NCBI GenBank assembly: GCA_024231025.1
Contig: JAAEQW010000120.1
Span: forward strand, 2,324 to 66,323
Length of the DNA stretch: 64,000 bases
From: Candidatus Omnitrophota bacterium
GTDB lineage: Bacteria > Omnitrophota > Gorgyraeia > Duberdicusellales > 4484-171
Reading direction: 5' to 3'
This document shows positions 17,503 through 60,678 of this stretch, in pieces. The notes under the pieces are model-generated. The model made no database searches and had not been told where the DNA came from. It saw nothing but the letters and a program-made list of their open reading frames with translations. Each line of letters opens with the position of its first letter. Position 1 is the first letter of the stretch. The position numbers and the translations under genes were made by a program.

Positions 17503-17532
17503 CCCGACTCCCTTACTAAAAAAATCGCTCAT

Positions 17533-17568
17533 ATAAAAAATCCCCACAACTTAGTAGCTATGGGGATT
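17533..17568 (-). promoter_or_regulatory. intrinsic-terminator-like hairpin plus U tract in the 5' leader of the giant gene (possible attenuator, or terminator of the upstream HTH gene)
   Basis: The minus-strand RNA reads AAAUCCCCAUAGCUACUAAGUUGUGGGGAUUUUUUAU. A 7-8 bp stem (AUCCCCA/UGGGGAU) with a ~14-nt loop is followed directly by UUUUUU, about 30 nt upstream of the RBS/ATG at 17502. Coordinates are +/-2 nt. Confidence 0.4.
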
Positions 17569-32927: not shown

Positions 32928-34376
32928 CTATCTATTATTGCAAAAAAGATATTTAAAAAAAATTCGACCAGCTTTTATAGTTTTCCCTAATTCTTTGGGG
33001 GTTCGCAAGATACTAATAGTTTTATACGCTAAATATCGTGGGTTTAAATAATATTTTTTGCGAGCATAATCACAAAAATCTACTAAATCCTGAGCGCTCA
33101 AAGAAGCGGTATTTATGACGCAATTATGCATCCCGTCGACATCAAGCCAATCCCGAAAATCTTTGGCTATAATATGCTCGTTGTCTTTGGCCCATTGATA
33201 GGCCTCGGTGCCAGGGTAAACCATTAAGGGGAAAAACTGTGCCGTATCAGCGTTGATCTTTTTTGCGAATTTAAGAGATTTCATTAAGGTTTCTCTGGTT
33301 TCACCCATATTCCCGGCCATAAAGCAAGAATGCAGTAATATGCCAGCCTTTTTTGCATCCACAACAAAACGTTGCATCTGCTGCAGTGTAGTTCCTTTTT
33401 TAACATTTTTAAGTATATCATCATCGGCACTTTCAAATCCAACGACTATTAAGCGACAACCTGCCTTCTTCATCATAGCCATCGTTTCATATTTCAAATT
33501 TGTCCGACATTCAACTGTCCAAGGAAGCTTTATCCCCTTTTCAATCATCAACTCACAAAATCTCATTGTATGTTTCTGGTCAAAAGAAAAAGTATCATCA
33601 TCAACCAAAACTTCTTGCACTTGAGGCAGCTCTTTCTCTATGTACTCAAATTCAGCAACAATATTTTCTGGAGTTCTCTGCCGCTGCTTACGACCAAACA
33701 TTTTTTCAGGATAAACACAGTAGTTACACTGTCCATAACATCCTCTGCTAGAAAAAATTGAAACAACCGGATATCTACAATGAGCATAAAAATAATTCTC
33801 TATGTTAAGGTGTTTTTTATATACAGCAGAGACAAAAGGAATAGAATCTAAATCCTCAATAAACGGTCTGGCATGGTTATGGATAAACTTTTCACCATCT
33901 CTAAAAGTAGTTCCGGAAATATTTTTTATAGGCTTACCCAACTGCAAACTATCGGCGATCTCAAGCAAAGTCGCATCATATTCACCACAAATCACCCCAT
34001 CTACTCTTTTGTCTAAATTAAGCGATTCTTCAATAAGCGCAGATACATGGGGACCAGCGAGAACAACCACACAATTGTCAAACAAATCTTTAATCTCTCC
34101 AGCAATTTGGACATCATTGTATATACTCGGTGTTGAAGTATATAAAACAGCTATGTCTGGTTTAAAATCACAAGCTATATCATAGCAATCCTGTCTTGAT
34201 AAGCCATCGGCACAAGCATCGATAAGCTTAACGGCATGACCTGAATTTTCAAGTACACCAGCAGCATAAGCATGCCAAATAGGATAATATATCGTACCAC
34301 TTTTAGTTACTGCTGGGCTGCGAGAAAATCGAGAAAACTTTGGTAAAAATGGTGGATTTAGCAGTAATACTTTCAT
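32928..34376 (-). CDS. B12-binding domain radical SAM enzyme (class B rSAM), 482 aa
   Basis: An N-terminal cobalamin-binding Rossmann-like domain and a CxxxCxxC cluster motif (SSRGCYGQCNYC). Confidence 0.8.
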   Translation of the reverse strand: MKVLLLNPPFLPKFSRFSRSPAVTKSGTIYYPIWHAYAAGVLENSGHAVKLIDACADGLSRQDCYDIACDFKPDIAVLYTSTPSIYNDVQIAGEIKDLFDNCVVVLAGPHVSALIEESLNLDKRVDGVICGEYDATLLEIADSLQLGKPIKNISGTTFRDGEKFIHNHARPFIEDLDSIPFVSAVYKKHLNIENYFYAHCRYPVVSIFSSRGCYGQCNYCVYPEKMFGRKQRQRTPENIVAEFEYIEKELPQVQEVLVDDDTFSFDQKHTMRFCELMIEKGIKLPWTVECRTNLKYETMAMMKKAGCRLIVVGFESADDDILKNVKKGTTLQQMQRFVVDAKKAGILLHSCFMAGNMGETRETLMKSLKFAKKINADTAQFFPLMVYPGTEAYQWAKDNEHIIAKDFRDWLDVDGMHNCVINTASLSAQDLVDFCDYARKKYYLNPRYLAYKTISILRTPKELGKTIKAGRIFFKYLFCNNR

Positions 34377-35749
34377 AATTTTTTCCCTTTAAAAAATTTA
34401 TTGTAAATTTTTGTTAATATTTCACGCAATGGCCCCCGTTTTAAATTCTTATAGGCGTAGCCAACGGCTTTAACTAATAATTTATTCTTAAACCTGCTAC
34501 CAACGATCTCACAGAGCGCTTTATTGGCATAGTCATAATCCACCCCTTTTATCTTTGACTTCTTAGGATCCCTGCTTAACTTAGCATAATCGCGTTCAAC
34601 AATTAAATCATTTTCCCGACAATAATCAAAAAGATACGATCCTGGCATAGGTGAATAAAAACTACAGCTAGATATTGTTGCGCTTATTTTTTTCGCCATA
34701 TCAGCAGTTTCTCTTATTTCGTTATTGGTCTCTGTGGGTAGTCCAATCATGAAATTTCCCACGATCCCAATACCATGCCTGTGCAGAATCTCGGCCGATC
34801 TTAAGTTCTGCTCAACAGTAGTTCCTTTGCCAATGAAATCCAATACCCGCTGGCTGCCACTCTCGAACCCTATAATCACCGCTCGAAGCCCTAGCTTTTT
34901 TAATTCTGCCATTTCATTATCCAAAGAACATATGTTATTGGACCTGCCTTGAAGCATGACTTCAACCTTCTTGACTCTAGATAGTCTTTCTAACAACTCA
35001 AACAAAAAATCCTTATGTGCCAAAATGCAATCATCATAAAACATAATTGAGTTAAATTCAAAGTGATTAGCAATATTTTCAACTTCCCTTAAAACCTGCC
35101 CAACGTTTTTCTGACGATATTTCTTGCCATAAAGAATCTGCTCTGCAGGCTGACAAAATTTACAATTATAAACACAACCTCGACTGGTAATAATCGGAAC
35201 CATCGGTGGCTTTACGATGCCGCCATACAGCGAAAAAGAAGTTGAAAGCTTATAATCATAGAGACCAATATCCTCAAAAGGAATATCGTTAATATCAGGT
35301 ATCTGACCACGAACTAATTTCTGAAAACCATCAGGCTCACGAAGCAATTTAGGCAAGGTAATGTCTGCCTCACCAGTAAATACATAATCAAAATTATTAT
35401 TTTTTACAAAATCGTCGGGAGATAGGCTTGGGTGAATACCACCTATTATTACTTTAGCATCTGGCTTAATAGTTTTTATAATCTTTGCTGACTTTTCCAC
35501 AATCGGCACATCGATAGTGCGACAAGTTATGCCATACCATAAAGACGAATCTTTGCTTACTGCTTCGAAAAAGCTTTCATAAGAAGAAAGCTGTCGAAAG
35601 TCTATCAATGAGCAGTCAATCTTATCCTTTTTACATATGGCCGATATTTGGGATACACCATGATTGACCGCGCTTGACCAATATGAATTACCCCACTTGC
35701 CGATTCCATATTCCCCCAAAAATCCCGGATCAATAATAGTAAACTTCAT
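34373..35749 (-). CDS. second B12-binding domain radical SAM enzyme, 458 aa
   Basis: TSRGCVYNCKFC is a CxxxCxxC motif, and an N-terminal B12-binding-like domain is present. There is a 4-nt ATGA-type overlap with the upstream gene. Confidence 0.8.
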   Translation of the reverse strand: MKFTIIDPGFLGEYGIGKWGNSYWSSAVNHGVSQISAICKKDKIDCSLIDFRQLSSYESFFEAVSKDSSLWYGITCRTIDVPIVEKSAKIIKTIKPDAKVIIGGIHPSLSPDDFVKNNNFDYVFTGEADITLPKLLREPDGFQKLVRGQIPDINDIPFEDIGLYDYKLSTSFSLYGGIVKPPMVPIITSRGCVYNCKFCQPAEQILYGKKYRQKNVGQVLREVENIANHFEFNSIMFYDDCILAHKDFLFELLERLSRVKKVEVMLQGRSNNICSLDNEMAELKKLGLRAVIIGFESGSQRVLDFIGKGTTVEQNLRSAEILHRHGIGIVGNFMIGLPTETNNEIRETADMAKKISATISSCSFYSPMPGSYLFDYCRENDLIVERDYAKLSRDPKKSKIKGVDYDYANKALCEIVGSRFKNKLLVKAVGYAYKNLKRGPLREILTKIYNKFFKGKKL

Positions 35750-36847: not shown

Positions 36848-37819
36848 TTAGCTTAACAACCCTTGCTTACGATAATGATCCGTAACATTAGATATTGCGT
36901 CTTTAATGTTAAAGGCCGGTTTCCAACCCATATCATTCTGCAATAAGGAAGCAGAGTAAATCTTTCGATTAGTTAGCTCTACAAGCTTAGCCGAATTGAT
37001 CGGCATACTACAATTCGTTAGCTTAGCAGCCCAATCAAGGACAGATACCAACATTTTAACCGGCCAATACGGTAAATGCATTATTGGCCTATCGTCAGCA
37101 ATTTTTTCCTTAATCGCTGCTATAAAATCGTTTAATTTTACAGGAGTATTTATAATATAAATATCACTGGCGACATCAACAGAAAGCAAACTAAAAATCA
37201 ATTCACTAATTTCCTTAACATAAAGATAGTTCAAATAAAATTGACTCCTGTCTCTACCAACAAAACAAAATCTGTTATTTTTAATTTTTGTAAATAAATT
37301 CAATAGGTGCTTTTCGGGATCATCTTCACCAAACACATTAGTTGGTCTTAATGTAATAACTTTTTGCGGATTCTGTTGAGAATATTTTTTAACTATTAAT
37401 TCAGCCTGCAATTTAGTCTTTTCATACGCATTGCCAGGCTGACAAGTCGTTTTCTCGTCAATCACGATATTAGCACTATTACCAATAACTCCAACGCTGC
37501 TTAAATAAATAAGCCTTTTAAGGCTACAGTTTTTTTCACAAGCATCAATTATGTTTTGAGTTCCCTTAACGTTAACTTGATAAAAAAACCGAGGATCATT
37601 TTTGCATCCAGCCATGTGTACAACATAATCAGATTGCTCAATGCCATGGTTAATTAATGATGTGTCAGATATATCTCCCTGCAAATAAACCAAGTTTTTT
37701 TTGCTATCTCTCTTCTGCCTAGTTAAAGCAACAAGACTGTATTCACCCTGACCACAAAGTTTTCTTAACATATGTTTACCGATAAATCCAGTACCACCAG
37801 TAATAAATATTCGTTTCAT
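36848..37819 (-). CDS. NAD(P)-dependent sugar epimerase/dehydratase (extended SDR), 323 aa
   Basis: MKRIFITGGTGFIGKHM is the GxxGxxG motif, and YEKTK is the YxxxK motif. Confidence 0.8.
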   Translation of the reverse strand: MKRIFITGGTGFIGKHMLRKLCGQGEYSLVALTRQKRDSKKNLVYLQGDISDTSLINHGIEQSDYVVHMAGCKNDPRFFYQVNVKGTQNIIDACEKNCSLKRLIYLSSVGVIGNSANIVIDEKTTCQPGNAYEKTKLQAELIVKKYSQQNPQKVITLRPTNVFGEDDPEKHLLNLFTKIKNNRFCFVGRDRSQFYLNYLYVKEISELIFSLLSVDVASDIYIINTPVKLNDFIAAIKEKIADDRPIMHLPYWPVKMLVSVLDWAAKLTNCSMPINSAKLVELTNRKIYSASLLQNDMGWKPAFNIKDAISNVTDHYRKQGLLS

Positions 37820-37837
37820 TGTTGTCCTATTGAAAAA

Positions 37838-39118
37838 TTAAAGTTTTTCGGCTTTAAGGCAATTTTGAAACCACGGGAAAAACATAGGTAAAAGAGCCAG
37901 GCTCATCATAAACCAATAGATAACTGACTTCCAAAACGGAAAAATTACAAGAGATATGATCATGCCAATCAAAATAGCAACACAACCAAAAATGCGTTCG
38001 CGAAACTTATCGCCCATAGTCCTACAGCCTTTGACAAAAAATATTACTCCTGCAATGATAAGAGGCATCAGGCATGGTAAAAACATGAGCAAAACAGTAA
38101 TCCCTGATGCATGCCCCTCCGCTACAGGATGAGGTGAGCGTACGGTGCCCCGTAAAGCCAAACTAGCCGCTTCTCTTATGCCAAAAACTTGGGGCAACGC
38201 ATCTGCTATGTCATTCAGTCGAACAAACAAACTATATTTTATAGTGCCTAGACCAAGATTGTGCGTAAATAATCCAGGAAAGAAGAACGCGTACAAACAC
38301 AAAAAACACACCAGCATGATCGCTGATTTTCCAATCTCACTCCTTTGATCTTTAGACCCTTTGACTAAAACAAAGACGGTAACTATGAAAAAACCAACAA
38401 AAACTATCTTGCCCATAGCAAGAGCGACCATCGCAGAAAGAATTGCCGTACCGCCAACAACTCGATTGTTAGTCTTTGTAAAATGAAGCGGTAGAGCAAA
38501 CAAAAGAAATAAACTAACTAAAGTACCTGAGCGTAAAAGACCCGCTGGTCTAAAAACCCTTACATCATATGCTATTTGAGATAAAGGAGTAAACAAGGTT
38601 GACTGTACATCAGGAGCCCTGGCAACTTCATAGTAATGGCTAGACAATATTTGTGAAAGGCCGCCAACACCGGCGCTTTGCAATATCATCAATGGCACAC
38701 TCAAAAAACAAATAAACATCACCTGTTTATATATGATATCCGGCTTTTGGAAAGCAATCACACCTGCGGCAATAAAAATCATAACGTTTACTAAAAAAAC
38801 GTAACCCATAGAGCACCATGTTGAAGCAAATATTGTTGCAATAGTCTTTAACAATACTACGGTCACCGCAAGTATCAGTGGCCACGCTTTAGAGCGAAAT
38901 GCATAAAGAATAATGAAAAGAGCAGCCACATCATTAAACAAAACTACGATTTGGCCAATATAAAACGGCCTAGCCCACCCATGAGGCCCTATAACAACCG
39001 TCAAAAGAATGCCGGGAAATAGCCACCACATGCATACCTTCTTCAAATCATCTAGAGTAACAGCACCTCCGCCTTTAAATAAGTCTGATATTTTTTTAAT
39101 AAAGTTTTTGGAACCCAT
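37838..39118 (-). CDS. polytopic membrane protein (426 aa), candidate Wzy-type repeat-unit polymerase
   Basis: At least 11 hydrophobic helices and no catalytic motifs recognised. The call rests on position in the glycan operon only. Confidence 0.35.
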   Translation of the reverse strand: MGSKNFIKKISDLFKGGGAVTLDDLKKVCMWWLFPGILLTVVIGPHGWARPFYIGQIVVLFNDVAALFIILYAFRSKAWPLILAVTVVLLKTIATIFASTWCSMGYVFLVNVMIFIAAGVIAFQKPDIIYKQVMFICFLSVPLMILQSAGVGGLSQILSSHYYEVARAPDVQSTLFTPLSQIAYDVRVFRPAGLLRSGTLVSLFLLFALPLHFTKTNNRVVGGTAILSAMVALAMGKIVFVGFFIVTVFVLVKGSKDQRSEIGKSAIMLVCFLCLYAFFFPGLFTHNLGLGTIKYSLFVRLNDIADALPQVFGIREAASLALRGTVRSPHPVAEGHASGITVLLMFLPCLMPLIIAGVIFFVKGCRTMGDKFRERIFGCVAILIGMIISLVIFPFWKSVIYWFMMSLALLPMFFPWFQNCLKAEKL

Positions 39119-39120
39119 AA

Positions 39121-40086
39121 CTAACTTACCCCTTTTTCAATCGGTTTAATACCGTACAATAATTTAATGAAAAAATTAAAAACACCCCAGGCTTTAAGCT
39201 TGTCCTTGGTCCTATACATCTTCTCCTGAGTAAAGATCAAAAACACAAAAGAAATTAGAATATCTCTTGGATTAAAACTTAAATTTAAAAAAGCCGGCAG
39301 CAATCTGAATCCTGCAGCACGTAGATCGCTTTTAAGGCAATTTTTATAGCCTCTCGCTATCCCTTTCAGCGATTTTTTATCAAGTTTATCTTTATACTTA
39401 TCAAGCAGATAAGAAAAATCATGGGCTATTATATGACGTCGAGAGTTGCTAAAATTCGCCTGATGTTTTCTGTAAACCGCCAAAGAATCTTTAGCATAAT
39501 CAAAGTTGCCTAAAAATGAAAGCCGCAGAAAAAGATCATAGTCCGGGGCATATATCATCTTATTATCAAATACTGTATCGAGCTTTTTTAACCCATCTAT
39601 TTTGATGACTGCGGTCTGAAAGCCAACAAAGTTATTTCGACATAAATGCTTAGTAACGCCACCTCGGTAAAAGTTCTTTTTTGGATCATGAACAACATAA
39701 TCAAAGTCTACAATCATATTTTTGGCGATGTAGTTACTATAAACCAAGACTGTATCGTCATTAAAAAGTTGGATCTGCTCGCTCAACTTATTAGGCATCC
39801 ATAGGTCATCACAATCAAGAAAGGCCAGGTATTGACCGGTTGCTTTCTCTACAGCTTTGTTGCGAGCTATGCCAAGAGTATCAAAAATATCAGACTTAAA
39901 ATACTTAATGCGATTATCATAGCTTTTAGCTATTTTAGCACTATCGTCGGTTGACGCATTATCCCAAAAGATTATCTCCCAGTCTTTATATTCTTGCGCA
40001 TAAACACTACCAATAGACTCTTTTAAATATTGAGAACCATTGTGACAATTCATTATTATGCTTACTTTTGCCATCACATTCTCCAC
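39121..40086 (-). CDS. GT2-family glycosyltransferase (GT-A fold), 321 aa
   Basis: VSIIMNCHNGSQYLKESIGSVYAQ...WDNASTDDS...LAFLDCDDLW gives the D, DxD and DCDD motifs of Glycos_transf_2. Confidence 0.85.
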   Translation of the reverse strand: MENVMAKVSIIMNCHNGSQYLKESIGSVYAQEYKDWEIIFWDNASTDDSAKIAKSYDNRIKYFKSDIFDTLGIARNKAVEKATGQYLAFLDCDDLWMPNKLSEQIQLFNDDTVLVYSNYIAKNMIVDFDYVVHDPKKNFYRGGVTKHLCRNNFVGFQTAVIKIDGLKKLDTVFDNKMIYAPDYDLFLRLSFLGNFDYAKDSLAVYRKHQANFSNSRRHIIAHDFSYLLDKYKDKLDKKSLKGIARGYKNCLKSDLRAAGFRLLPAFLNLSFNPRDILISFVFLIFTQEKMYRTKDKLKAWGVFNFFIKLLYGIKPIEKGVS

Positions 40087-41102
40087 TTAATCTCTTCATC
40101 TACTCTATTATCATCAATAAGCTTCCTTATTGTTCTTATTCTAAAATATTTATTGGAATCAAAACCTTCTTGAGTCAGATTAAACTTCCTATAGGCATCA
40201 TAAAGCTCATTCACCCCCATCTCCAGATCCCAAACTGGGTTGAAATCCAAGGTGTTCTTTATTTTTGAAAAATCAACTCTATAGGAGCGCTCATCAGACC
40301 CAGCTGTATTTTTTATTTCAACACGACTACCCACAACAACCTTTTCTACACAGTGAGCTATATCTCTAACTCGATAGTTCTCACTATTGCGACCCACGTT
40401 AAAAGTTTGATTGTGCACCTTATCAACCGGTGCTTGAACAATAGCAAGAAAAGCCCGGCAAAGATCCTCGGCATGAGCTATGGGCCGCCAAGGGCTACCA
40501 TCGCTTAATATGGTAACTTTTCCAGTAATATGCGCCCAGGCTAAAAGGTTATTCACCACAAGATCAAGTCTTAGCTTTGGCGAAAGACCATATGCTGTAG
40601 CATTACGTAAAAACGTAGGATGAAAATTACTATCTGCCAACTTGGCCAACTCAATCTCTGAATCTACCTTGGCCTTGGCATATGCCGTTAAGGGATCCAC
40701 TTCATCCTCCTCAGTAAGTGCCTTATCTCCTGGGGCGATACCGTAAACACTGCATGATGATGAAAAGAGATATCTTGATATGCCGATGCTTTTAGCAAGC
40801 TTGGCAAGGTTTACCGACGAAACACAGTTAATCTTATGAGTAAGGCCAGGATTTAACTCACCCAAAGGATCATTAGAGAGCGCCGCCAAATGAATAACAG
40901 CTTCCACGCCATCTAAATCACAAGCCTCTATGTTATCAACATCCTTGAATATCTGTCTGAAAGGCCTCTCTTGGGCCGGATAAAATTCACACCCTTTATA
41001 GTAGTCGGAATCAACACCAACAACCTCATGGTCCCTATCTTGTAAAAATTTTGCCATGACCGTACCAATATACCCCGTATTTCCTGTAACTAGAATCCTC
41101 AT
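40074..41102 (-). CDS. NAD-dependent sugar epimerase/reductase (GalE-like extended SDR), 342 aa
   Basis: MRILVTGNTGYIGTVM, FSSSCSVYG (matching GalE SSSATVYG) and YAKAK. Confidence 0.75.
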   Translation of the reverse strand: MRILVTGNTGYIGTVMAKFLQDRDHEVVGVDSDYYKGCEFYPAQERPFRQIFKDVDNIEACDLDGVEAVIHLAALSNDPLGELNPGLTHKINCVSSVNLAKLAKSIGISRYLFSSSCSVYGIAPGDKALTEEDEVDPLTAYAKAKVDSEIELAKLADSNFHPTFLRNATAYGLSPKLRLDLVVNNLLAWAHITGKVTILSDGSPWRPIAHAEDLCRAFLAIVQAPVDKVHNQTFNVGRNSENYRVRDIAHCVEKVVVGSRVEIKNTAGSDERSYRVDFSKIKNTLDFNPVWDLEMGVNELYDAYRKFNLTQEGFDSNKYFRIRTIRKLIDDNRVDEEIKWRM

Positions 41103-41121
41103 TTCTTTTATCTCCTTTAAA

Positions 41122-41574
41122 TTACTTATTCTTTATATCCCAGTTATAAGGTATTTTATCAGTACGAGGGTCTAGCCTGTCCATCTCTCCCGAAGTATTA
41201 GGCATTGTGGCACAATTAGCAACAATGGCCGGTTTACCACCAACAGCCAAATGACCATTCCAAACCAATGGAGGTATTTTAACGAGACAGTAGTTCTGAT
41301 CTCCAATAAATAGCTCCATTAGCCCTCCTTTTGTAGCAGAACCATCTCTGTCGTCAAAGAGCACAAGCTTTATCATGCCCTGTATAACCGCATAGTTTAA
41401 AGTCATCTCTTTGTGACTATGCCACCCCTTTATCGCTTTAGGGTATATAGTAGAAAAATAGATCTCTCCAAACTTTTCAAAAATAGGGTCATCATTGCGC
41501 AACATATGATAAATACACCCACGCTCATCCGGTATTTTTCTTAAAGATCTTACAACTACTCCTTCAATACTCAT
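41122..41574 (-). CDS. RmlC-like cupin sugar-nucleotide 3,5-epimerase / 3,4-ketoisomerase family protein, 150 aa
   Basis: Small cupin with GWHSHKE and FSTIYPKAIKGWH, resembling dTDP-4-dehydrorhamnose 3,5-epimerase or the MlghB/FdtA-type small cupins. Confidence 0.55.
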   Translation of the reverse strand: MSIEGVVVRSLRKIPDERGCIYHMLRNDDPIFEKFGEIYFSTIYPKAIKGWHSHKEMTLNYAVIQGMIKLVLFDDRDGSATKGGLMELFIGDQNYCLVKIPPLVWNGHLAVGGKPAIVANCATMPNTSGEMDRLDPRTDKIPYNWDIKNK

Positions 41575-41595
41575 CTCATCCTCCTTTAATATCTC

Positions 41596-42825
41596 TTAAA
41601 TTATCTCTATTTCCGGATAGGGCTTTATGATCTTTAGCCCTTTATCCCTATATTTCTCAATACTTTTTACAATCTCATTAAAATAAGTATATGATGTAAT
41701 CAACAAATAATCAAGCGGCTGTTTGCTGAGCGCGTCTGAAGACGCTACTGGTATGCCAAGCAAAGGAATAAAGCGTTTTTGTTTGTTTATATCTGAGTCG
41801 ATAACGTAGTTAAAAAAATCCTCACCCTGATCGATGGAGCTTATCATGGTGACACCACGTGAACCTGCCCCCCAAGCCCCTATCTTTTTACCCTTGCTCT
41901 TTATCTCGGACAAACACTGCGATATATTCTGCCGCCAATCTTGATAACCCTTGGCAAAAGAATCAACACCGCTATAATCGGTGGCCAACTGATCAAGATC
42001 ATGATCTTGATCATTCGAACAAAAAATACGCAAAAACTCACCCTGGCTGCTCTCTATTTCGGTAACATTTTTCCAACCCAACTTCTTTAAAAAACTAATC
42101 AAATAATCGGATGTAAAATAATATATATGATCATAGTAGAAATCAAAATAAAGGTTATTCTCCATCAAAAAAGACACATTAGGCACTTCAAGAAATAAAG
42201 CCCTCTGATCCTGGGAAACCCTATAACATTTATTAAGCGACTCCAGATAATTTAAAGGATCCGATATATGCTCCAAAACATGTCTCAAAACAAACAGATT
42301 TATACTCTTACCTTCTAATTGCTTTTGTTGAGCTGGATCAAAGTAATCATTATGCACTTCTATATTTTCATATTTTTTTGCCATCTGAAATGTAGGAGAC
42401 GGCTCAAAGCCTACAGCTTGCTTGCAATAACGTGACATTTGTTCAAGAAAGAAACCATCACCACAGCCTATCTCACAAACGCTCTTACCTTTTAAATCCA
42501 TCATCTTTGCTACATCTTCGGCCAGCTGTTTTTGATAGTGCATAGACTGAGTTGAAAAAGACATAGAAGAATAATAGTCTGGATCCTTATAATCATGACT
42601 CTTTGCCTGCGAAGTAAAATAATCACCGTTAAAGACAATGCGACAATCTTGGCACATAACTATATCAAGTCCCGCACTTTGGCAGTTAACCGCTTCTCTC
42701 TGGCTTTTGTACAGACTCTGTGACGAAGCCGGCATCTTCGTTGCTCTAAGCAGCGGCTTAATGCCTCGGGAAGAACAAAAAATACACTTATCTATTTTTT
42801 CCAAGGCGCTATACCTTCTTGCCAA
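41596..42825 (-). CDS. NDP-hexose C-methyltransferase (TylCIII-like: Zn-ribbon + class I SAM MTase + C-terminal domain), 409 aa
   Basis: N-terminal CxxC...CxxC (CIFC...CQDC), SAM motif I VCEIGCGDGFF, and the ~410-aa three-domain layout typical of sugar 3-C-methyltransferases. Confidence 0.65.
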   Translation of the reverse strand: MARRYSALEKIDKCIFCSSRGIKPLLRATKMPASSQSLYKSQREAVNCQSAGLDIVMCQDCRIVFNGDYFTSQAKSHDYKDPDYYSSMSFSTQSMHYQKQLAEDVAKMMDLKGKSVCEIGCGDGFFLEQMSRYCKQAVGFEPSPTFQMAKKYENIEVHNDYFDPAQQKQLEGKSINLFVLRHVLEHISDPLNYLESLNKCYRVSQDQRALFLEVPNVSFLMENNLYFDFYYDHIYYFTSDYLISFLKKLGWKNVTEIESSQGEFLRIFCSNDQDHDLDQLATDYSGVDSFAKGYQDWRQNISQCLSEIKSKGKKIGAWGAGSRGVTMISSIDQGEDFFNYVIDSDINKQKRFIPLLGIPVASSDALSKQPLDYLLITSYTYFNEIVKSIEKYRDKGLKIIKPYPEIEII

Positions 42826-43553
42826 AGACCCTCAAGAACATTTCTGTCTCTTATAGTATCCATACAATGCCAAAAACCTTCATGTTTATGCACCATCAAC
42901 TGCCCATCTTTTGCTAGATTCTCAAGAGGATCCTGTTCCAAAATAGTCTTATCACTCTTAAGATATTTAAATATCTCCGGCTGGAAAACAAAAAAACCAC
43001 CATTTACCCAGCCTTCACCGGTTTGAGACTTTTCTTTAAAATCAACGACCTTCTCGCCATCAAAACTCATACAACCAAACCGTGCCGAAGGCCTTACGGC
43101 AGTCACCGTGGCTATCTTCCCATGTGATTTATGGAACTCTACCAACTTCTCAATATCTACATCGCTAAGACCATCTCCATAAGTAAGCATAAAAGTCTCA
43201 TTAAGCTTACCCTCAAGTCTTCCAAGCCTTCCTCCAGTCATGGATTTTTCTCCGGTATCAACGAGATCTATTTTCCAGTCTTTGATGTTGTTATTTTCAG
43301 CAGTAATTTTACCAGTTTTTAGATCTATATTAAGATTGCTTTGATGATGATAATAATTTATAAAGTATTCCTTTATCATCTCACCCTTGTAGCCAAGAGC
43401 CAAGGTAAACTCCTTATATCCAAACGACCTATATATATTCATAATGTGCCATAAAATAGGTTTACCACCTATCTCTACCATCGGCTTTGGCCTATACTCT
43501 GTTTCCTCTCGCAATCGAGTGCCCATACCTCCGCACAAAACTACAACTTTCAT
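42792..43553 (-). CDS. rfbF: glucose-1-phosphate cytidylyltransferase (CDP-glucose pyrophosphorylase), 253 aa
   Basis: MKVVVLCGGMGTRLREETEYRPKPMVEIGGKPILWHIMNIY is a close match to the RfbF/DdhA N-terminus as recalled. The 253-aa length matches. Confidence 0.8.
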   Translation of the reverse strand: MKVVVLCGGMGTRLREETEYRPKPMVEIGGKPILWHIMNIYRSFGYKEFTLALGYKGEMIKEYFINYYHHQSNLNIDLKTGKITAENNNIKDWKIDLVDTGEKSMTGGRLGRLEGKLNETFMLTYGDGLSDVDIEKLVEFHKSHGKIATVTAVRPSARFGCMSFDGEKVVDFKEKSQTGEGWVNGGFFVFQPEIFKYLKSDKTILEQDPLENLAKDGQLMVHKHEGFWHCMDTIRDRNVLEGLWQEGIAPWKK

Positions 43554-43554
43554 A

Positions 43555-44484
43555 TTAATCCTCCGATATTTTATAGAACTCTACTGTACGCTTCAACCCT
43601 TCTTCTAAACTTATCTGCGGCTGCCAACCAATCTTTTCCTTTATGAGAGAAGTATCCGCATAAAGCTGCATATTCTCACCCTTACGATAAGGATAAGTGC
43701 CCCACAAAGGCGTCCCTTTGCCTGTTATCTTAACAATTTTCTCAACCATCTCTCGGATAGTAACAGCCTGACCTGAACCAACATTAAATATCTTACCCTT
43801 GGCGCTATTTGACAACGCTAGCTGGGCCAAAGCCTGAACTGCATCCTCTACATAACAAAAATCACGAAGCTGCTTCCCCTCAGAGGTTTTAAACTCTTCA
43901 CCATTAAGACAAGCTTTTATTATTTGCGGTAAAAATCGTCGGTCATCCTGACCAGGTCCGTAAACCAGAAAGAATCTCGCAACAACCCCTGGAAAATCTT
44001 CGGTTTTGCTAATCATTTGTATAAAATGAGAGGCGGCTGTTTTTGCAAAAGAATACGGCGATATTGACATTTCACGCATAGCTTCATTCTGCGGTGCCAA
44101 AAGCCCTCCATACTCATCGCTTGAGCCGATCTGAACAAAACCTTTTAATCTGTCCCAATCAATGCTATCTAATAAATTCATCAAACCAATAAGATGAGCC
44201 TCTATCACTCTGCGCCCACCCTTAAAATAATGGGTATGATCTATATAGCCCCCTAAGTTAAACACGTAGTCAAAAGCTCTTGCTTTGAGAGCCTTCGCAA
44301 GAGAAGGCTTATCACATAAATCAGCCGTAATATATTCAACATCCTTAATAGGCTCTGTCTTCTCAGGCAAAGATAAAACGGAAACGTTCTCTGTATCCTT
44401 TAAGCATCTTTTAACCAGATGGCTTCCGATAAATCCCGTACCTCCTATAACCAATATTTTGTCTAAAGCTTTAAAATTTTTCAT
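43555..44484 (-). CDS. NDP-sugar 4,6-dehydratase-like extended SDR (candidate CDP-hexose or GDP-heptose 4,6-dehydratase), 309 aa
   Basis: LVIGGTGFIGSHL, GSSDEYGG (the dehydratase-type S-x-D-E dyad, compare RmlB STDEVYG) and YSFAK. Confidence 0.55.
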   Translation of the reverse strand: MKNFKALDKILVIGGTGFIGSHLVKRCLKDTENVSVLSLPEKTEPIKDVEYITADLCDKPSLAKALKARAFDYVFNLGGYIDHTHYFKGGRRVIEAHLIGLMNLLDSIDWDRLKGFVQIGSSDEYGGLLAPQNEAMREMSISPYSFAKTAASHFIQMISKTEDFPGVVARFFLVYGPGQDDRRFLPQIIKACLNGEEFKTSEGKQLRDFCYVEDAVQALAQLALSNSAKGKIFNVGSGQAVTIREMVEKIVKITGKGTPLWGTYPYRKGENMQLYADTSLIKEKIGWQPQISLEEGLKRTVEFYKISED

Positions 44485-45917
44485 GATAAAAATAACTTAG
44501 AATATGTTACTAATGGCTGACCGATCCCCAATCTTTCTTTCATTTTTATGGAGCCCCCCCTTAAACCTACGCTACCCACCAAATCCCGTAACGAAATATC
44601 TTGATAATCCTTTCGCAAAGATCCTTCAATGCCTTCAATATTTATATACTGCAAATAATCAGAATTTGTGATTTGAATAACTGGCCGCCCAAGCAACAAG
44701 GCCTCTTCCAAAACTGTAGTGCTCATGCCAACAACCGTAATGGCGCCCTCTATGTCTTCTTTTAAACTAACGCCTTTAGACATCTGGATCAAACCTTTTT
44801 TAAGCTGCGCGTTTAACCATCTCTGCTTACTGCGCTTGATCTGTGCGTAGGGATGCAATCTTATTCTTATTTTCATTGGATCTTTAAGCTTTTCAACAAC
44901 TCTTTGCAAAGATGCAATTAAAACATCATTGTCAAAACTGGCAAGAGCACCCGCAAATAAATAATATTTTCCTTTTTTATCTGGATTAGCAACTACATCT
45001 TTCCAATGCGAATATCGATAGCTGCAACCTAAAAAAAACTTGGTATTGGCATAATAAGGCCTTAACAGGCCCATGATATCTTTGTTAAATACGTGCATAA
45101 CATCCGGCAAAGCCAAACCTCCCTCTATTTCCTCAGGGTGAGCAAAATACCACAGCTTACCCGGAGTAATCGCCGCGTGTTGAACCGCATAGCTTTTGGT
45201 TTTATACTTTTTGGCCACCTGCCAGGCTACCCTGGCATAAAAATGCATTTCGTGCACGCAACCTATTTTTTTAATATCGTATTTTTCTACAACTTGGGAC
45301 AACGCATGTTCAAGGTAATAAGCATATAGCCATCGCTGGCTTACTGCCCATTCAAACCACAGAAAGGTCAGCAATATCTTATCAAAAAGATTACCACGAA
45401 CTTGGCCGAAGGCATACGCTCCGCTCTTTACAAGGGCTAATCCGTACAACAGTTTGTGCCCTAATCCTAATTTTTCTATATCTTGTTCATCTTTACCGCA
45501 ATCCTTAGTCCGTCCAAAAACGAAGATACCGTCATCCTCATTGGTATAAACATAGGGAGTATGGTATACTCCATCCGACCCCTGTAAACCACACGTCGAT
45601 GATACCACCAAAATACTATCGTCTACTTTACCGTATACTGCATACTTAAAAGAGCTCGGACTAAAGGCTAGCTTAATCATGCCTTTAACGCCACTATAGA
45701 TTGTTCGGATCAAAAGACCGCAAAATAATCTTGCCTTGTGTTTTTTCCTATACCTCTCATGCCAAAGCATACATAGATCGGGACTCCTTGCACTCAAGGG
45801 AGATGCAAAGACCAATGACAACAATCTAGGAGGGATCACGTTTACCGCCTTGGATACAAATTTAATTGCTAATAATTCAAAATCATCACTAAACATTGCA
45901 CTATTTATTTGTTTCAA
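44481..45917 (-). CDS. GT-B-fold transferase of TagF/KpsC-like (glycerophospho- or capsule-polysaccharide transferase) type, 478 aa
   Basis: C-terminal RIRLHP...ITVVGMSTTVLEEALLLGRPVI resembles the HP catalytic and nucleotide-binding (ITDYSSV-like) motifs of Glyphos_transf/Capsule_synth families. It is a paralogue of 62504-63964. Confidence 0.35.
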   Translation of the reverse strand: MKQINSAMFSDDFELLAIKFVSKAVNVIPPRLLSLVFASPLSARSPDLCMLWHERYRKKHKARLFCGLLIRTIYSGVKGMIKLAFSPSSFKYAVYGKVDDSILVVSSTCGLQGSDGVYHTPYVYTNEDDGIFVFGRTKDCGKDEQDIEKLGLGHKLLYGLALVKSGAYAFGQVRGNLFDKILLTFLWFEWAVSQRWLYAYYLEHALSQVVEKYDIKKIGCVHEMHFYARVAWQVAKKYKTKSYAVQHAAITPGKLWYFAHPEEIEGGLALPDVMHVFNKDIMGLLRPYYANTKFFLGCSYRYSHWKDVVANPDKKGKYYLFAGALASFDNDVLIASLQRVVEKLKDPMKIRIRLHPYAQIKRSKQRWLNAQLKKGLIQMSKGVSLKEDIEGAITVVGMSTTVLEEALLLGRPVIQITNSDYLQYINIEGIEGSLRKDYQDISLRDLVGSVGLRGGSIKMKERLGIGQPLVTYSKLFLS

Positions 45918-46833
45918 AAAATCTTATCAAATTCTGTGTCGCCTCTAACTCCATCTGAATACGTGACTCTTTTGTCAAAGTAGCCACGTGAGGAGTTAAA
46001 ACAATATTCTCGATATCGCAAAGTTTTCCTTTATAAGGCTCTTGCCCAAAAACATCTAAGCCAGCACCAGCCAAATGGCCATCTTTTAAGGCATCGTATA
46101 AAGCATTCTCATCAACAAACTGACCACGGGCAACGTTAATCAGCATTGCGCCTTTCTTCATAGAAGAAATTTCTTTCTTGCCCAAAACAAATGGAGCGTC
46201 TTCTCTGAAGGTAATATGAATACTTACAATGTCACAAGCTAAAAGCAATTGGTCAAGGGCAATAATTTTTACGCCTGCCTGCTTTGCCCAATCAAGATCT
46301 GGCGCAATATCGCATCCATAAACCTTTGCGCCTAAAGATCTTATAAGTTCGGCTGTGCGCCGCCCTATTCTTCCTAAACCAATAATGCCAAATGTCTGTT
46401 CACTTAAAAGATTGCCGGTTTTTTTCTCCCAGCGCCCAGCCTTCAGAGATGCCGTTTGAACTGAAACCCTCTTCAAAAGATCAAAAGCAAATCCAACGGT
46501 CAACTCAGCAACCGGCTGGCTGACAACATCAGGCGTATTGCGCACAGCTATACCCCTTTGTTTAGCTTTATCAAGATCAATATTATCAATTCCAACGCCT
46601 AGGCGCGATATGCACTTTAACTTTGGCATGCTCTCGATGACTTGTGAATTAAACGGTTCAAGGCCAGCTATTGCTCCCTCGCAATCACCACCCATATCCA
46701 TAAGCTCATCGGCTGTTAACCGACGACCAAGCGAGTTTATGCGATAGCTCAAACCGCTTCGATCCAAAAGTTTAAGCGGCTGATCACCGTGTTTAGCAAA
46801 TGTTGATGCCGAAATAAATATCTGTCCCTTCAT
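45901..46833 (-). CDS. D-isomer-specific 2-hydroxyacid dehydrogenase (NAD-binding), 310 aa
   Basis: FGIIGLGRIGRRTAELIRSLGAKVYGCD is the classical GxGxxG(17x)D NAD motif of the D-2-HADH family, and the HVA catalytic-His region is present (LTPHVATLTKES). Confidence 0.85.
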   Translation of the reverse strand: MKGQIFISASTFAKHGDQPLKLLDRSGLSYRINSLGRRLTADELMDMGGDCEGAIAGLEPFNSQVIESMPKLKCISRLGVGIDNIDLDKAKQRGIAVRNTPDVVSQPVAELTVGFAFDLLKRVSVQTASLKAGRWEKKTGNLLSEQTFGIIGLGRIGRRTAELIRSLGAKVYGCDIAPDLDWAKQAGVKIIALDQLLLACDIVSIHITFREDAPFVLGKKEISSMKKGAMLINVARGQFVDENALYDALKDGHLAGAGLDVFGQEPYKGKLCDIENIVLTPHVATLTKESRIQMELEATQNLIRFFETNK

Positions 46834-47618
46834 GCGATCTCTCCTTTAAGTTGTGCTATTTTTTCGTAAAAATCTTTTTGAGTTAAGTCATTTCTTAAAA
46901 TATCCTCTACACTCGCTACATCATCTTCTCGATCTACACCCACTGTTCTCTGGGAGTATATTACTCCTCTTATTGAGTAGCCATGCTCTAAGATGCGTAA
47001 AAAATCGACTGACTCCACCACCTCTTTTGGCGTAGGATCAAGACGAGAAAATTTATGTAAAAATTCTTTAGTAAATGCCGATATGCCTGTTTGACGATAC
47101 ATAGGACATTTATCATCAACTCTAAAGTAAGGTATTGGCGATCTGGAAAAGTACATCACATCATTTTTATTATTGATCACTGCCTTAACAATATCAATAT
47201 CGTCCAAATCTGCCTTATCTTCAATGACTGATAACAGGTTTGTGCAAATCATTGAATCACACTCAAACATGGGCTTTACCAAAACCTCTAAAACCTGCGG
47301 ATCAAACAAGGGTTCATCACCCTGGACTATTACAACAATATCAGCATCCAGATCCATTGCCGCCTCATCAACCCTGTCAGTACAACGTTGGTGAGTATCT
47401 TTTGTCATAACAGCCTTACCACCGGAGTTGTTCACTACGTCAAAAATCTCTTTATCGCAAGTGGCAACATATGTTTGGTCTATCACCTTTGACAAAGATA
47501 CTCTTCTTCTTACATGTTCGATCATCGGCAGATCTAATATTTTTGCCAAAGGTTTACCTGGAAAACGCGAAGCAGCCATCCTGGCTGGTATTATTGCAAC
47601 AACTTTTTTCTTACTCAT
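46830..47618 (-). CDS. CMP-3-deoxy-ulosonic acid cytidylyltransferase (KdsB-like, CTP_transf_3 family), ~262 aa
   Basis: VVAIIPARMAASRFPGKPL matches the KdsB IIPAR..S.R.PGKPL motif. The ATG at 47618 overlaps the stop of the downstream SDR gene (ATGA). Confidence 0.7.
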   Translation of the reverse strand: MSKKKVVAIIPARMAASRFPGKPLAKILDLPMIEHVRRRVSLSKVIDQTYVATCDKEIFDVVNNSGGKAVMTKDTHQRCTDRVDEAAMDLDADIVVIVQGDEPLFDPQVLEVLVKPMFECDSMICTNLLSVIEDKADLDDIDIVKAVINNKNDVMYFSRSPIPYFRVDDKCPMYRQTGISAFTKEFLHKFSRLDPTPKEVVESVDFLRILEHGYSIRGVIYSQRTVGVDREDDVASVEDILRNDLTQKDFYEKIAQLKGEIA

Positions 47619-48364
47619 AATGGCATCACTCCACAATCAACATTTATTGATTGCCCGGTTATGGCTGAGCTTGAGTTTGAAGCTAAAAATAGACAGCTGT
47701 CGGCCACCTCTTTTGCCTGCGGCAAACGCTTTAAACCCGATTGAGATTTAGCAAAACTACTTAAGTAACTTTTAATATTTTTACCTGCCGTTGGTGACAC
47801 CTTACTTTTTAGAGCCTGCAGCAAACCTTTGGTCTCGATATACACCGGGCAAATTGCATTAACCCTTATTCCATCCTTACCCAGCTCCTTTGACAAAGCT
47901 TGAGTCAATCCGGTTACTCCAAATTTAGAAGCGCAATATACAGAGTTATTCGCGCTACCCCGACGACCAGCAAGGCTCGAAATATTTATTATAGCTCCAC
48001 CTTTATTCAAGCTCTGTGCTGCAACCTTACATCCTAAAAAAGTACCTTTTAAGTTAGTATCGATCATGGCATTCCAAAAATCATTAGTTACCTTGCCAAT
48101 CGGTGACCATTTAGAAAAACCTGCGCAGTTAATATAAACATCCAAGCGCTTGGTCCATTTTTTTGCTGACTGGACCACCTTTTGGTGATCACTCTCTTTG
48201 CGTACATCACACTTGATGAAGCGAACATCTTCACCCAACTCTCTTGACAACCCTGTGTCGGTGCGAGCAGCAACAACAACTCGATATCCGGCCTGTGCAA
48301 AGCTGCGAGTTATTTGGGCCCCTATACCCTTATTCCCGCCAGTAATAACTACAGTTTTTTTCAT
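47615..48364 (-). CDS. classical SDR oxidoreductase, 249 aa
   Basis: TGGNKGIG, NISS...YCASK (YxxxK). Confidence 0.85.
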   Translation of the reverse strand: MKKTVVITGGNKGIGAQITRSFAQAGYRVVVAARTDTGLSRELGEDVRFIKCDVRKESDHQKVVQSAKKWTKRLDVYINCAGFSKWSPIGKVTNDFWNAMIDTNLKGTFLGCKVAAQSLNKGGAIINISSLAGRRGSANNSVYCASKFGVTGLTQALSKELGKDGIRVNAICPVYIETKGLLQALKSKVSPTAGKNIKSYLSSFAKSQSGLKRLPQAKEVADSCLFLASNSSSAITGQSINVDCGVMPL

Positions 48365-48378
48365 TTATAAATCCTTTT

Positions 48379-49158
48379 TTAAATGGTCATACTTGAAAAT
48401 CCGCCATCAACAGCAATCTCAGCACCAGTAACAAAGCTTGCCGCATCAGAACATAGCCAAATAACAGCTCCAATAAGCTCTGAGGGCTTCCCGTAACGCT
48501 TCATAGCCGTATGCCCCAAAATCGCTGCTTCTCTTTCTTTTGTGATAAAATTCTTTTTACTCCACTCTGTGGGAAAAAATCCTGGACGAAGAGCATTGAC
48601 TCTAACACCCTTGGTTGCCCATTCACGAGCTATATTTTGCGTAATATTTTTAACACCAGACTTAGCCACTGAATATGCAAAAGCCTTTGATAGTGGCGGC
48701 CCGGCTGATGCTGAAGAAATATTTATAATTGATCCACTGCCATTTTTAAGCATATGCTCTCCAAAAACCTGACAGCCTAAAAAAGTACCGGTTAAATGAA
48801 CTTCTATTATGGAATTCCATTCATCCAGTGGTATATCTAAAAATGGTGTAGGAGCATTAATGCCTGCGCCGTTTATCAAGATATCCACCTTACCAAACTC
48901 TAGGCTTGCCTTATCAAGAACTTGAGCATGCTCTTCTTTTGTAGTAACCCCGCTTACCACTCCAACGACTTTACCACCGTCTTTTTTAATTTCACTGACC
49001 TTTTCATCAACTCTCTTTTTATCATTGTCGACTATCACCACAGATACCCCTGACTTGGCTAAGGCACAGGCCATTGTGCCGCAAAGAAATCCCCCGCCAC
49101 CGGTTATAACTGCAACCTTGTCTTTAACGGTAAAAAGTTCTCCAACATATTCTGACAT
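48379..49158 (-). CDS. classical SDR oxidoreductase, 259 aa
   Basis: VITGGGGFLCGTMA, YSVAK. Confidence 0.85.
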   Translation of the reverse strand: MSEYVGELFTVKDKVAVITGGGGFLCGTMACALAKSGVSVVIVDNDKKRVDEKVSEIKKDGGKVVGVVSGVTTKEEHAQVLDKASLEFGKVDILINGAGINAPTPFLDIPLDEWNSIIEVHLTGTFLGCQVFGEHMLKNGSGSIINISSASAGPPLSKAFAYSVAKSGVKNITQNIAREWATKGVRVNALRPGFFPTEWSKKNFITKEREAAILGHTAMKRYGKPSELIGAVIWLCSDAASFVTGAEIAVDGGFSSMTI

Positions 49159-49171
49159 AATTAAACTCCCC

Positions 49172-49807
49172 TTAATTATTTAACAAAAAATTTTGAACTT
49201 GGGCCATGTTATTAAATATTGGAACATCGTCTCTACCAAATGGTTTCTTGCTATCGCGACCAATAAAGAATGTTTCTGTATCTTGCGCACTCTTTAAATC
49301 CTCAGGTGTATCGCCAATAAAAACCATATCGCCCAGAGAAACGCCTTCTCGCCCTGCAATATCTTTTAAAGTATCAACTTTAACCCAGGGATAGGCATAA
49401 ACATCTTTAAAATACTTGGCAATGCCTCGCTTATTAAGTATGCGCATAAATTCATCTTTTGGATTAACTGTAGCAATATACATCGGAACCTTATCATAAA
49501 AATAATCTAAAAAATCCATTGCCCCATCAACATAGGGGCAAGCTATGATAGATTTTAAAACATAGTCCGAATATTGCGCACACATTTGATCTTCTAGCTG
49601 TTGAGTATATGTTTTATTCAGAATATGCTCAGTTATATATTTAAATTTTGTATACCTTATAGTTGCGTTGTTGGCAAGATGATAGCGCATTATCTCATCT
49701 ATCTTATCAGGATAATTTTTAAAAAGATCTTCGAAAGCCTTATCCTTTATACCAACAGACTCAACCAAAGTACCGTCAAAGTCTAAAGCTATAACCTTAA
49801 ATTGCAT
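49172..49807 (-). CDS. HAD-superfamily phosphatase, 211 aa
   Basis: Motif I IALDFDGTLV (DxDGT) and FIGDTPED (motif IV). Confidence 0.75.
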   Translation of the reverse strand: MQFKVIALDFDGTLVESVGIKDKAFEDLFKNYPDKIDEIMRYHLANNATIRYTKFKYITEHILNKTYTQQLEDQMCAQYSDYVLKSIIACPYVDGAMDFLDYFYDKVPMYIATVNPKDEFMRILNKRGIAKYFKDVYAYPWVKVDTLKDIAGREGVSLGDMVFIGDTPEDLKSAQDTETFFIGRDSKKPFGRDDVPIFNNMAQVQNFLLNN

Positions 49808-49808
49808 A

Positions 49809-51270: not shown

Positions 51271-51292
51271 AACAAACCTCCTCTAAAAATTT

Positions 51293-51898: not shown

Positions 51899-51911
51899 AG
51901 TATAGCCTCCT

Positions 51912-57622: not shown

Positions 57623-57638
57623 ATGTAGCCTGCCTTTA

Positions 57639-60677: not shown

Positions 60678-60678
60678 T

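Follow-up and report, generated by a model that had tools for sequence, protein, structure and literature searches.

The window analysed here, a stretch of 64,000 nucleotides (nt) of contig JAAEQW010000120.1 from a Candidatus Omnitrophota bacterium, contains at 40074-44484 on the minus strand an operon that probably provides a C-methyl-branched hexose, linked to cytidine diphosphate (CDP), for a surface polysaccharide. It is not a classical DdhA/DdhB pathway of CDP-deoxysugars because the dehydratase that defines this pathway is absent. In the route that we prefer, with about as much confidence as doubt, CDP-glucose would be converted to a 4-keto sugar, methylated at carbon, epimerised, reduced at C4, and transferred by a family 2 glycosyltransferase (GT2). 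Whatever goes beyond the family membership of the proteins we infer from their sequences.

According to the list of open reading frames (ORFs), the cassette consists of exactly five tightly packed genes with intergenic spacings between -34 and +21 nt, and it is surrounded by glycan-synthesis genes in a run of about 40 kb on the minus strand. The content given in a first-pass annotation of this DNA, namely a cytidylyltransferase, a C-methyltransferase, a cupin, and two extended short-chain dehydrogenases/reductases (SDRs), could be confirmed, and the profile matches of all five proteins are far beyond chance. Both SDRs match PF01370 strongly (SDR309 with 158 bits). The functional unit, however, is larger than the five genes annotated there and includes at least also the GT2 gene (39121-40086). 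A homologue of this GT2 (35-60% identity) adjoins the cassette in nearly every related locus, and GT2_321 is likely the transferase for the product sugar. The genes are listed below in order of transcription, with lengths in amino acids (aa); related loci are denoted by L numbers.

43555-44484, minus strand: SDR309, extended SDR, 309 aa, first gene
42792-43553, minus strand: NT253, glucose-1-phosphate cytidylyltransferase, 253 aa, second gene
41596-42825, minus strand: MT409, sugar C-methyltransferase, 409 aa, TTG start, third gene, overlapping the upstream gene by 34 nt
41122-41574, minus strand: CUP150, small cupin, 150 aa, fourth gene
40074-41102, minus strand: SDR342, extended SDR, 342 aa, fifth gene
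39121-40086, minus strand: GT2_321, GT2 (PF00535, 106 bits), overlapping the end of SDR342 by 13 nt
36848-39118, minus strand: U426 and SDR323, downstream of the GT2 gene, kept in L001 and L014

Sugar carrier and C-methyltransferase

The carrier of the sugar is indicated by NT253. This protein passes the equivalog model TIGR02623 (360.3 bits, cut-off 300.25) and aligns over 251 residues with Salmonella Typhi RfbF (1tzf; residues 2-252 onto 4-256, E 9e-86), while it fails the model of the heptose-1-phosphate guanylyltransferase HddC (89 bits, cut-off 300). By its sequence, NT253 is an enzyme of the RfbF/DdhA type that makes CDP-D-glucose. The first-pass annotation had proposed the same carrier, and NT253 does not turn out to be a nucleotidyltransferase of the type using deoxythymidine triphosphate (dTTP) or uridine triphosphate (UTP), which had been named there as the contrary finding. 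A second proposal, that the cassette could instead act on heptose linked to guanosine diphosphate (GDP), was rejected for the window because NT253 fails the HddC model and no HddA homologue was found in the window. The GmhA-like (45 bits, cut-off 209) and HddC-like ORFs of the window are weak matches and are located far from the cassette. The heptose proposal fits some sister loci. In L004, L015, L016, and L005 (Dehalococcoidia), a heptose supply (GmhA, an HddC-GmhB fusion, and HddA) accompanies the trio of methyltransferase, cupin, and SDR342-type genes, which implies, as far as the sequences tell, that these loci make a C-methylated heptose. We know of no such sugar in the literature.

MT409 combines a class I S-adenosylmethionine (SAM) domain (PF13489, 74.7 bits) with the C-terminal domain PF08484 (77.1 bits, cut-off 23.5). 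The only solved structures to which it scores well are TcaB9, the sugar 3-C-methyltransferase 5t64, which we take to be KijD1, and the D-mycarose 3-C-methyltransferase. The relationship to TcaB9 is distant (E 2e-18). Tyr222, Glu224, His225, and His181 of TcaB9 align with Tyr230, Asp232, His233, and His186 of MT409, and Tyr230, His233, and His186 are invariant across 24 relatives. In the N-terminal four-cysteine motif, Cys58 and Cys61 are present in all of these relatives and Cys14 and Cys17 in at least 90% of them; the match of MT409 to the Pfam zinc-domain model PF08421 stays below significance at E 0.001. Judged by these features, MT409 is a SAM-dependent sugar C-methyltransferase of the TcaB9/TylC3 family. 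The TylCIII-like assignment of the first-pass annotation thus stands after the hidden Markov model check with PF08484, the alignment to TcaB9, and the inspection of the conserved residues, and the protein does not fall into another family of O- or N-methyltransferases. The 34-nt overlap of the cytidylyltransferase and methyltransferase genes recurs in L012 and L013.

The known TcaB9-type methyltransferases use 4-keto substrates. Methylation at C3 has its precedent in TcaB9 and TylC3, and methylation at C5 is possible by a NovU-type reaction. By analogy, MT409 would methylate next to a 4-keto group, most likely at C3, or at C5. TcaB9, TylC3, and KijD1 have the same architecture as MT409 (a Cys-rich N-terminus, the class I SAM domain, and PF08484), including the active-site Tyr and His residues. 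They act, however, on 2,6-dideoxy sugars linked to deoxythymidine diphosphate (dTDP) and belong to antibiotic secondary metabolism, whereas MT409 is encoded in a cell-surface glycan locus and is presumed to act on a CDP sugar that has the 2-OH and probably also the 6-OH (or, in the sister loci, on GDP-heptose).

The two extended SDRs

SDR342 is the SDR that occupies the slot of the dehydratase. Its best solved relative is Cj1427 of Campylobacter jejuni (6vo6; E 5e-28, the next structure at 1e-18). With the single sequence as query, the scores are 101 versus 71 bits, so that the kinship to Cj1427 is only distant; with a profile built from eight family members, Cj1427 reaches 177 bits, the next structure 115 bits, and the dTDP-glucose dehydratases 75-83 bits. 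SDR342 and Cj1427 have the segment G-[IL]-S-P-[KR]-[LM]-R-L-D-L-[LV]-V-N in common, and in both of them an Asp typical of binding nicotinamide adenine dinucleotide (NAD) ends β-strand 2 (Asp31 in SDR342). Ser116, Tyr141, Lys145, and Asp31 are invariant in the SDR342 family, which has at least 8000 matches at E 1e-30 or better. At the positions of the dehydratase T-D-E, SDR342 has S-C-S and Cj1427 has T-N-S, and there is no carboxylate in either of them. The scores of SDR342 on dehydratase models are between 44 and 57 bits (TIGR02622: 44.3 bits, cut-off 278). The reaction of Cj1427 is an oxidation of GDP-heptose at C4 that involves no dehydration, and the resulting 4-keto sugar is passed on to an epimerase of the cupin type and to a reductase distinct from Cj1427; the tightly bound NADH of Cj1427 is recycled by α-ketoglutarate in a ping-pong mechanism (PMC10680097).

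From these sequence relationships we infer that SDR342 is an NAD-dependent C4 dehydrogenase making a CDP-4-keto sugar. The role of the oxidant is left to SDR342 also because one of the two SDRs must oxidise and the other reduce, and in the dehydratase-type operons described below the reduction falls to SDR309. The GalE-like reductase/epimerase that the first-pass annotation had seen in SDR342 is therefore not upheld, given its closeness to Cj1427 and its place in the dehydratase slot. For the same reasons, and because the acid/base pair of the dehydratases is missing, the 6-deoxy product assumed there has become doubtful.

It could still be that SDR342 is a non-canonical 4,6-dehydratase, a one-for-one replacement of the classical enzyme. 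The product would then be a CDP-6-deoxy-3-C-methyl-hexose, and SDR309 would still be the reductase. In related cassettes the dehydratase takes exactly the position of SDR342, and none of the loci examined contains both the SDR342 type and the classical dehydratase. An invariant Cys117 beside the catalytic Ser could be the acid/base of such a reaction. Furthermore, 6-deoxy sugars are the common natural class among C-methyl sugars (PMC12961483), and operons that combine a classical dehydratase with a C-methyltransferase do exist (L007, L006, and SMb21416-18 of Sinorhizobium meliloti; PMC4053727). Nevertheless, the dehydratase positions of SDR342 hold neither an Asp/Glu nor an Asp/Lys pair, the scores on dehydratase models are low, and the nearest solved relative, ahead by 62 bits, is a pure C4 dehydrogenase (PMC10680097). 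We regard a dehydratase of this kind as unlikely, though it deserves to be kept in mind, and put the loss of the 6-OH at the SDR342 step at about one chance in three.

With SDR309 the gene context is a stronger argument against a dehydratase than the motif or the scores. Its best NCBIfam model is the dTDP-glucose dehydratase (TIGR01181, 145 bits, cut-off 365), and on the model of the CDP-glucose 4,6-dehydratase (TIGR02622) it reaches 44.8 bits (cut-off 278). The motif QIGSSDEYG is invariant in the family (GSSDEYG corresponds to residues 120-126). HMMER and MAFFT both align it ungapped with S-T-D-E-V-Y-G of the dTDP-glucose dehydratase, which places S-S-D at the T-D-E positions of RmlB. The acid/base test for a dehydratase was D-E, D-K, or S-E directly after the catalytic Thr or Ser, as in RmlB, GMD, and DdhB. 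SDR309 has no Asp at the end of β-strand 2. The residue following this strand was considered as an indicator of cofactor preference but proved to be non-discriminating, because a true CDP-glucose dehydratase also lacks the Asp.

At a threshold of E 1e-20, the family of SDR309 comprises more than 3000 proteins, and members from Nitrospirota, Planctomycetota, Elusimicrobiota, and Omnitrophota share about 60% identity. In Dissulfurispira thermophila (L017), an SDR 64% identical to SDR309 is followed by a cytidylyltransferase (383 bits on TIGR02623), a CDP-glucose 4,6-dehydratase (486 bits on TIGR02622), a 149-aa cupin, and a GT2. A CDP-glucose 4,6-dehydratase was also found, within the stretch available, in 18 of 33 metagenome loci with an SDR at least 35% identical to SDR309 (family range 35-64%; all retrieved via the SSDEY motif). 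The usual order in the dehydratase-bearing loci is dehydratase, cupin, cytidylyltransferase, SDR, and GT2. Because the family shares operons with the true CDP-glucose 4,6-dehydratase, SDR309 is placed downstream of the ketone as a reductase. A 6-deoxyhexose pathway needs a 4-ketoreductase, and these five-gene operons offer no candidate for it other than the SDR309-type protein, which should therefore be the reductase. From its gene context, SDR309 is most likely an NAD(P)H-dependent 4-ketoreductase of a CDP-4-keto sugar that catalyses the last step, and it is probably not a 4,6-dehydratase. All that is left of the SDR309-type gene in L012 is a remnant of about 170 nt, located upstream of the gene for the cytidylyltransferase (L012:1-180), with about 26 N-terminal and 20 C-terminal codons in different frames. 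The L012 cassette is closed by an RmlD-like reductase (175 bits on TIGR01214), and the remnant looks like what would be expected from the displacement of one reductase by another.

The first-pass annotation had assigned the two SDRs the other way round, with SDR309 as the CDP-glucose 4,6-dehydratase and SDR342 as the final 4-ketoreductase/epimerase of a C-methyl 6-deoxy sugar. This assignment would agree with the resemblance of the SSDE of SDR309 to the TDE of dehydratases, with the best NCBIfam model being a dTDP-glucose 4,6-dehydratase, and with L002, which has SDR309 together with an RmlD-like reductase and no SDR342. However, SDR309 is far below the curated cut-offs, its motif aligns as S-S-D, and its family is routinely encoded beside the true CDP-glucose 4,6-dehydratase in five-gene operons without another reductase. 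In addition, L012 and the heptose loci would be left without an oxidising enzyme. We consider this assignment rather improbable.

Cupin, proposed pathway and its weak points

CUP150 belongs to the RmlC/FdtA superfamily. Its closest match is 3ejk (E 3.5e-37), an uncharacterised structural-genomics protein with the PDB title 'dTDP sugar isomerase'. With 26.6 bits it stays just under the cut-off of the RmlC-type family PF00908 (27 bits), it reaches 19.8 bits on Pfam FdtA, and a search of NCBIfam with CUP150 gave no match. The profile of the cupin family finds RmlC-type, WbcA-type, and C. jejuni heptose epimerases as well as the 'putative epimerase' 5buv at 3e-8 to 1e-5, and FdtA at 1e-5. Invariant residues of the family are Glu37, Tyr39, Trp51, His54, Asn120, and Glu130. 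His52 aligns with the catalytic His of RmlC (His63) and is a Lys in many relatives. Relatives of the CUP150 type (53-73% identity) are present in every methyltransferase or SDR342 locus with this type of cupin. The earlier view of the cupin as an RmlC-like nucleotide-sugar enzyme agrees with these matches. By analogy to the Campylobacter and Yersinia systems, CUP150 is predicted to be an epimerase of the 4-keto sugar. The first His of W-H-x-H had also been considered as a marker of an SDR342-type intermediate, and this was dropped in view of L046, where a cupin with W-H-x-H accompanies a dehydratase of the classical type.

Alternatively, CUP150 might be a 3,4-ketoisomerase of the FdtA/QdtA type. 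The ketone would then move to C3, and the positions of methylation and reduction would shift accordingly. In the alignment to 5tpu, the cupin sequence G-W-H-S-H-K matches the H-x-H-K of FdtA-type enzymes, the family profile finds FdtA and QdtA at about 1e-5, and both the Pfam FdtA score and the title of 3ejk point in the same direction. The RmlC-type, WbcA-type, and C. jejuni heptose epimerases nevertheless score better (3e-8 to 2e-7), and the first His of the motif is not kept in many family members. Moreover, an aminotransferase, the usual partner of a ketoisomerase, is missing in the cassette, and the known TcaB9-type methyltransferases take 4-keto substrates. A ketoisomerase would surprise us.

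The preferred route would consist of six steps. NT253 would convert glucose-1-phosphate and CTP (cytidine triphosphate) to CDP-D-glucose, as expected from its family, and SDR342 would oxidise C4 to give CDP-4-keto-glucose, probably with the 6-OH kept. MT409 would then use SAM to methylate a carbon beside the ketone, most likely C3, where the family of the enzyme is clear and the position is deduced. CUP150 would epimerise the remaining acidic position, C5 and/or C3, SDR309 would reduce the 4-ketone as suggested by its gene context, and the adjacent GT2 would move the sugar to the growing glycan. A precedent for a non-deoxy 3-C-methyl hexose is 3-C-methyl-D-mannose from the O-antigen of Helicobacter pylori (PMC12961483).

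In a wider sense, it could be possible, with chances a little short of even, that a Cj1427-type dehydrogenase acting on CDP-glucose together with a TcaB9-type methyltransferase gives a CDP-3-C-methyl-hexose retaining the 6-OH, and that the cassette is one version of a modular toolkit widespread in uncultured phyla. In such a toolkit a 4,6-dehydratase, a Cj1427-like SDR, or a radical SAM-SPASM enzyme would fill the slot in which the ketone is formed, the slot for methylation would be empty or contain a TcaB9-like or a B12-radical SAM enzyme, and the supply slot would provide CDP-hexose or GDP-heptose. We know of no biosynthetic route for this class of non-deoxy CDP-3-C-methyl-hexoses.

Several observations weigh against the preferred route. 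CUP150 has no clear equivalents of Lys73 and Tyr133 of RmlC: the residue at the position of Lys73 is not a Lys, and the alignments to RmlC end before the region of Tyr133. Its H52-x-H54-K motif is FdtA-like. A nearly invariant His126 (P-H-D-P-x-E in 15 of 16 relatives) is an Asn in CUP150 (P-N-T-S-G-E), which could mean an altered or reduced activity, or that the residue is not essential. For SDR342, the invariant Cys117 may serve as acid/base in an elimination or epimerisation and could support a chemistry that we have not foreseen, and a partner for recycling by α-ketoglutarate is not evident in the cassette. Where the dehydratases have their Glu, SDR309 retains an Asp, so the acid/base test is borderline, and its profile is without a clear characterised relative, as Pal, 4-epimerases, and dehydratases match at similar scores. 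L002 has SDR309 and an RmlD-like SDR but no SDR342, and it can be reconciled with the route only on the assumption that the ketone comes from its radical SAM-SPASM protein, which is speculation. Finally, neither the regiochemistry of the methylation nor the final stereochemistry is readable from sequence. As a separate observation on the cupin, the relatives that keep His126 include those in other methyltransferase loci.

Related loci, known systems and the surrounding glycan genes

The core of the cassette is not special to the window. L019, L099 (Elusimicrobiota), and L100 (Planctomycetota) encode SDR309, cytidylyltransferase, cupin, SDR342, and GT2 without any other redox enzyme, and the window cassette is this widespread five-gene set, as in L099 and L100, with MT409 placed between the cytidylyltransferase and cupin genes. 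We surveyed the genes around nine MT409 relatives with 35-57% identity; a scan of the genome collection with the methyltransferase profile retrieved only 7 loci, and the genome of the window itself was not among them. Among the nine loci with a relative of MT409, the 149-aa cupin (53-58% identity) is missing only from L013 and from L001, where a different cupin of 208 aa is present; a GT2 is missing only from L013, and an SDR342-type gene (45-57% identity) only from L002 and L014. In L002 and L014 a radical SAM-SPASM gene is found at the position of SDR342. A cytidylyltransferase like NT253 provides the supply in L001, L002, L012, and L013. The classical version, with cytidylyltransferase, true dehydratase, and distant TcaB9-like methyltransferases, is present in Sphingomonas sp. 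CFBP 13603 (L007) and in L006, and S. meliloti SMb21416-18 are annotated as ddhA, ddhB, and an NDP-hexose 3-C-methyltransferase (PMC4053727).

Radical SAM-SPASM genes at the SDR342 slot and B12-binding radical SAM genes at the methyltransferase slot were observed at L002:4616-5731, L014:1503-2633, L020:8583-11411, and L018:6417-11450. Their positions suggest a non-orthologous replacement of both the ketone-forming and the methylation step. NCBIfam yielded only generic matches for these radical SAM proteins; the idea that those of L002 and L014 are BtrN-like dehydrogenases stays speculative, as their matches are of the generic maturase type.

Among known systems, the cassette would work most like the Cj1427/Cj1430/Cj1428 route of C. 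jejuni (C4 dehydrogenase, cupin C3/C5 epimerase, and C4 reductase), moved onto CDP-glucose and extended by a TcaB9-type C-methyltransferase. Both comprise C4 oxidation without dehydration, epimerisation by a cupin, and reduction at C4; among solved structures Cj1427 is nearest to SDR342, and the cupin profile matches the heptose epimerases. The C. jejuni pathway, however, uses GDP-heptose instead of CDP-glucose and has no inserted C-methyltransferase, and in the window the reductase comes from an unrelated SDR family and the cupin belongs to the 3ejk subfamily. With the classical CDP-6-deoxyhexose operons of Yersinia and Salmonella (DdhA/RfbF and DdhB/RfbG), a form seen in many metagenome loci and in Dissulfurispira, the window has the cytidylyltransferase, the SDR309-type reductase, the small cupin, and the GT2 in common. 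These operons have the 4,6-dehydratase in the slot that holds the Cj1427-like SDR342 in the window.

To our knowledge, most of the known C-methyl branched sugars belong to antibiotic pathways, in which they are built on dTDP and always via a 4,6-dehydratase. Two nucleotide-linked 3-C-methyl 6-deoxy sugars, CDP-vinelose in Azotobacter vinelandii and GDP-virenose in Coxiella burnetii, are used outside antibiotic pathways; no paper mentioning vinelose was found in the literature searched. The literature search also revealed no paper combining CDP-glucose with Cj1427, nor the combination of genes in the cassette or its likely non-deoxy product. As judged from sequence, the parts are thus familiar, and their combination and the likely non-deoxy product are new to the literature searched. 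If the preferred route is true, Omnitrophota and their relatives in Planctomycetota, Elusimicrobiota, Nitrospirota, and Dehalococcoidia would make the ketone by plain C4 oxidation, and a CDP-based (or GDP-heptose-based) route would lead to non-deoxy branched sugars in surface glycans. Two very large SDR families that have no annotation could then be given a function. A CDP-sugar C-methyltransferase would become available to glycoengineering, and so would another example, the second, of the unusual chemistry of Cj1427. Should the preferred route be wrong, the cassette would be an ordinary O-antigen-type deoxy-sugar operon.

Downstream of the GT2 gene, U426 (426 aa) has no family match and about 12 hydrophobic segments in the hydropathy plot, and SDR323 has T-R after β-strand 2, which is typical of NADPH binding. 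Relatives of both (47-61% identity) are located downstream of the cassette in L001 and L014, and the two genes may be part of the same module. In the region directly upstream of the cassette (44481-47636), a KdsB-like cytidylyltransferase (NF009905, 272 bits) is encoded together with a 2-hydroxyacid dehydrogenase and a protein of 478 aa that matches TIGR04326 weakly. The first two recur in the methyltransferase loci L004 and L015, the 478-aa protein in L001 (56%) and L100 (29%). The next run (47615-52063) encodes two classical SDRs, a HAD phosphatase, an HpcH/HpaI aldolase, a fructose-6-phosphate-aldolase-like protein, and a SIS-domain protein with a weak GmhA match; it may constitute a sugar-acid pathway.

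Further upstream, a 737-aa ORF (55445-57658) fuses a pyruvate-kinase barrel, a PUA-like domain, and an ATP sulfurylase, which is an unusual fusion. It is flanked by genes for an adenylyl sulfate (APS) kinase (54900-55448) and a sulfotransferase (57639-58838), and the genes at 54900-58838 suggest a sulfated glycan. At 59916-62491, an AroB-like 3-dehydroquinate (DHQ) synthase, with 318 bits just above the cut-off of 305, is encoded within the glycan locus between a classical SDR and a PseF-like cytidylyltransferase; a similar DHQ-synthase-like gene with an SDR is present in L001. On the other side of the cassette, there are two adjacent B12-binding radical SAM genes (32928-35749), the first of which is HpnJ-like (391 bits, below the cut-off of 578). 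An ORF of 320 aa at 30739-31701 contains an IS200-like Y1 transposase domain; it is located within the polysaccharide locus and has the same orientation as the genes around it. A single ORF of 5291 aa covers 1672-17547 on the minus strand.

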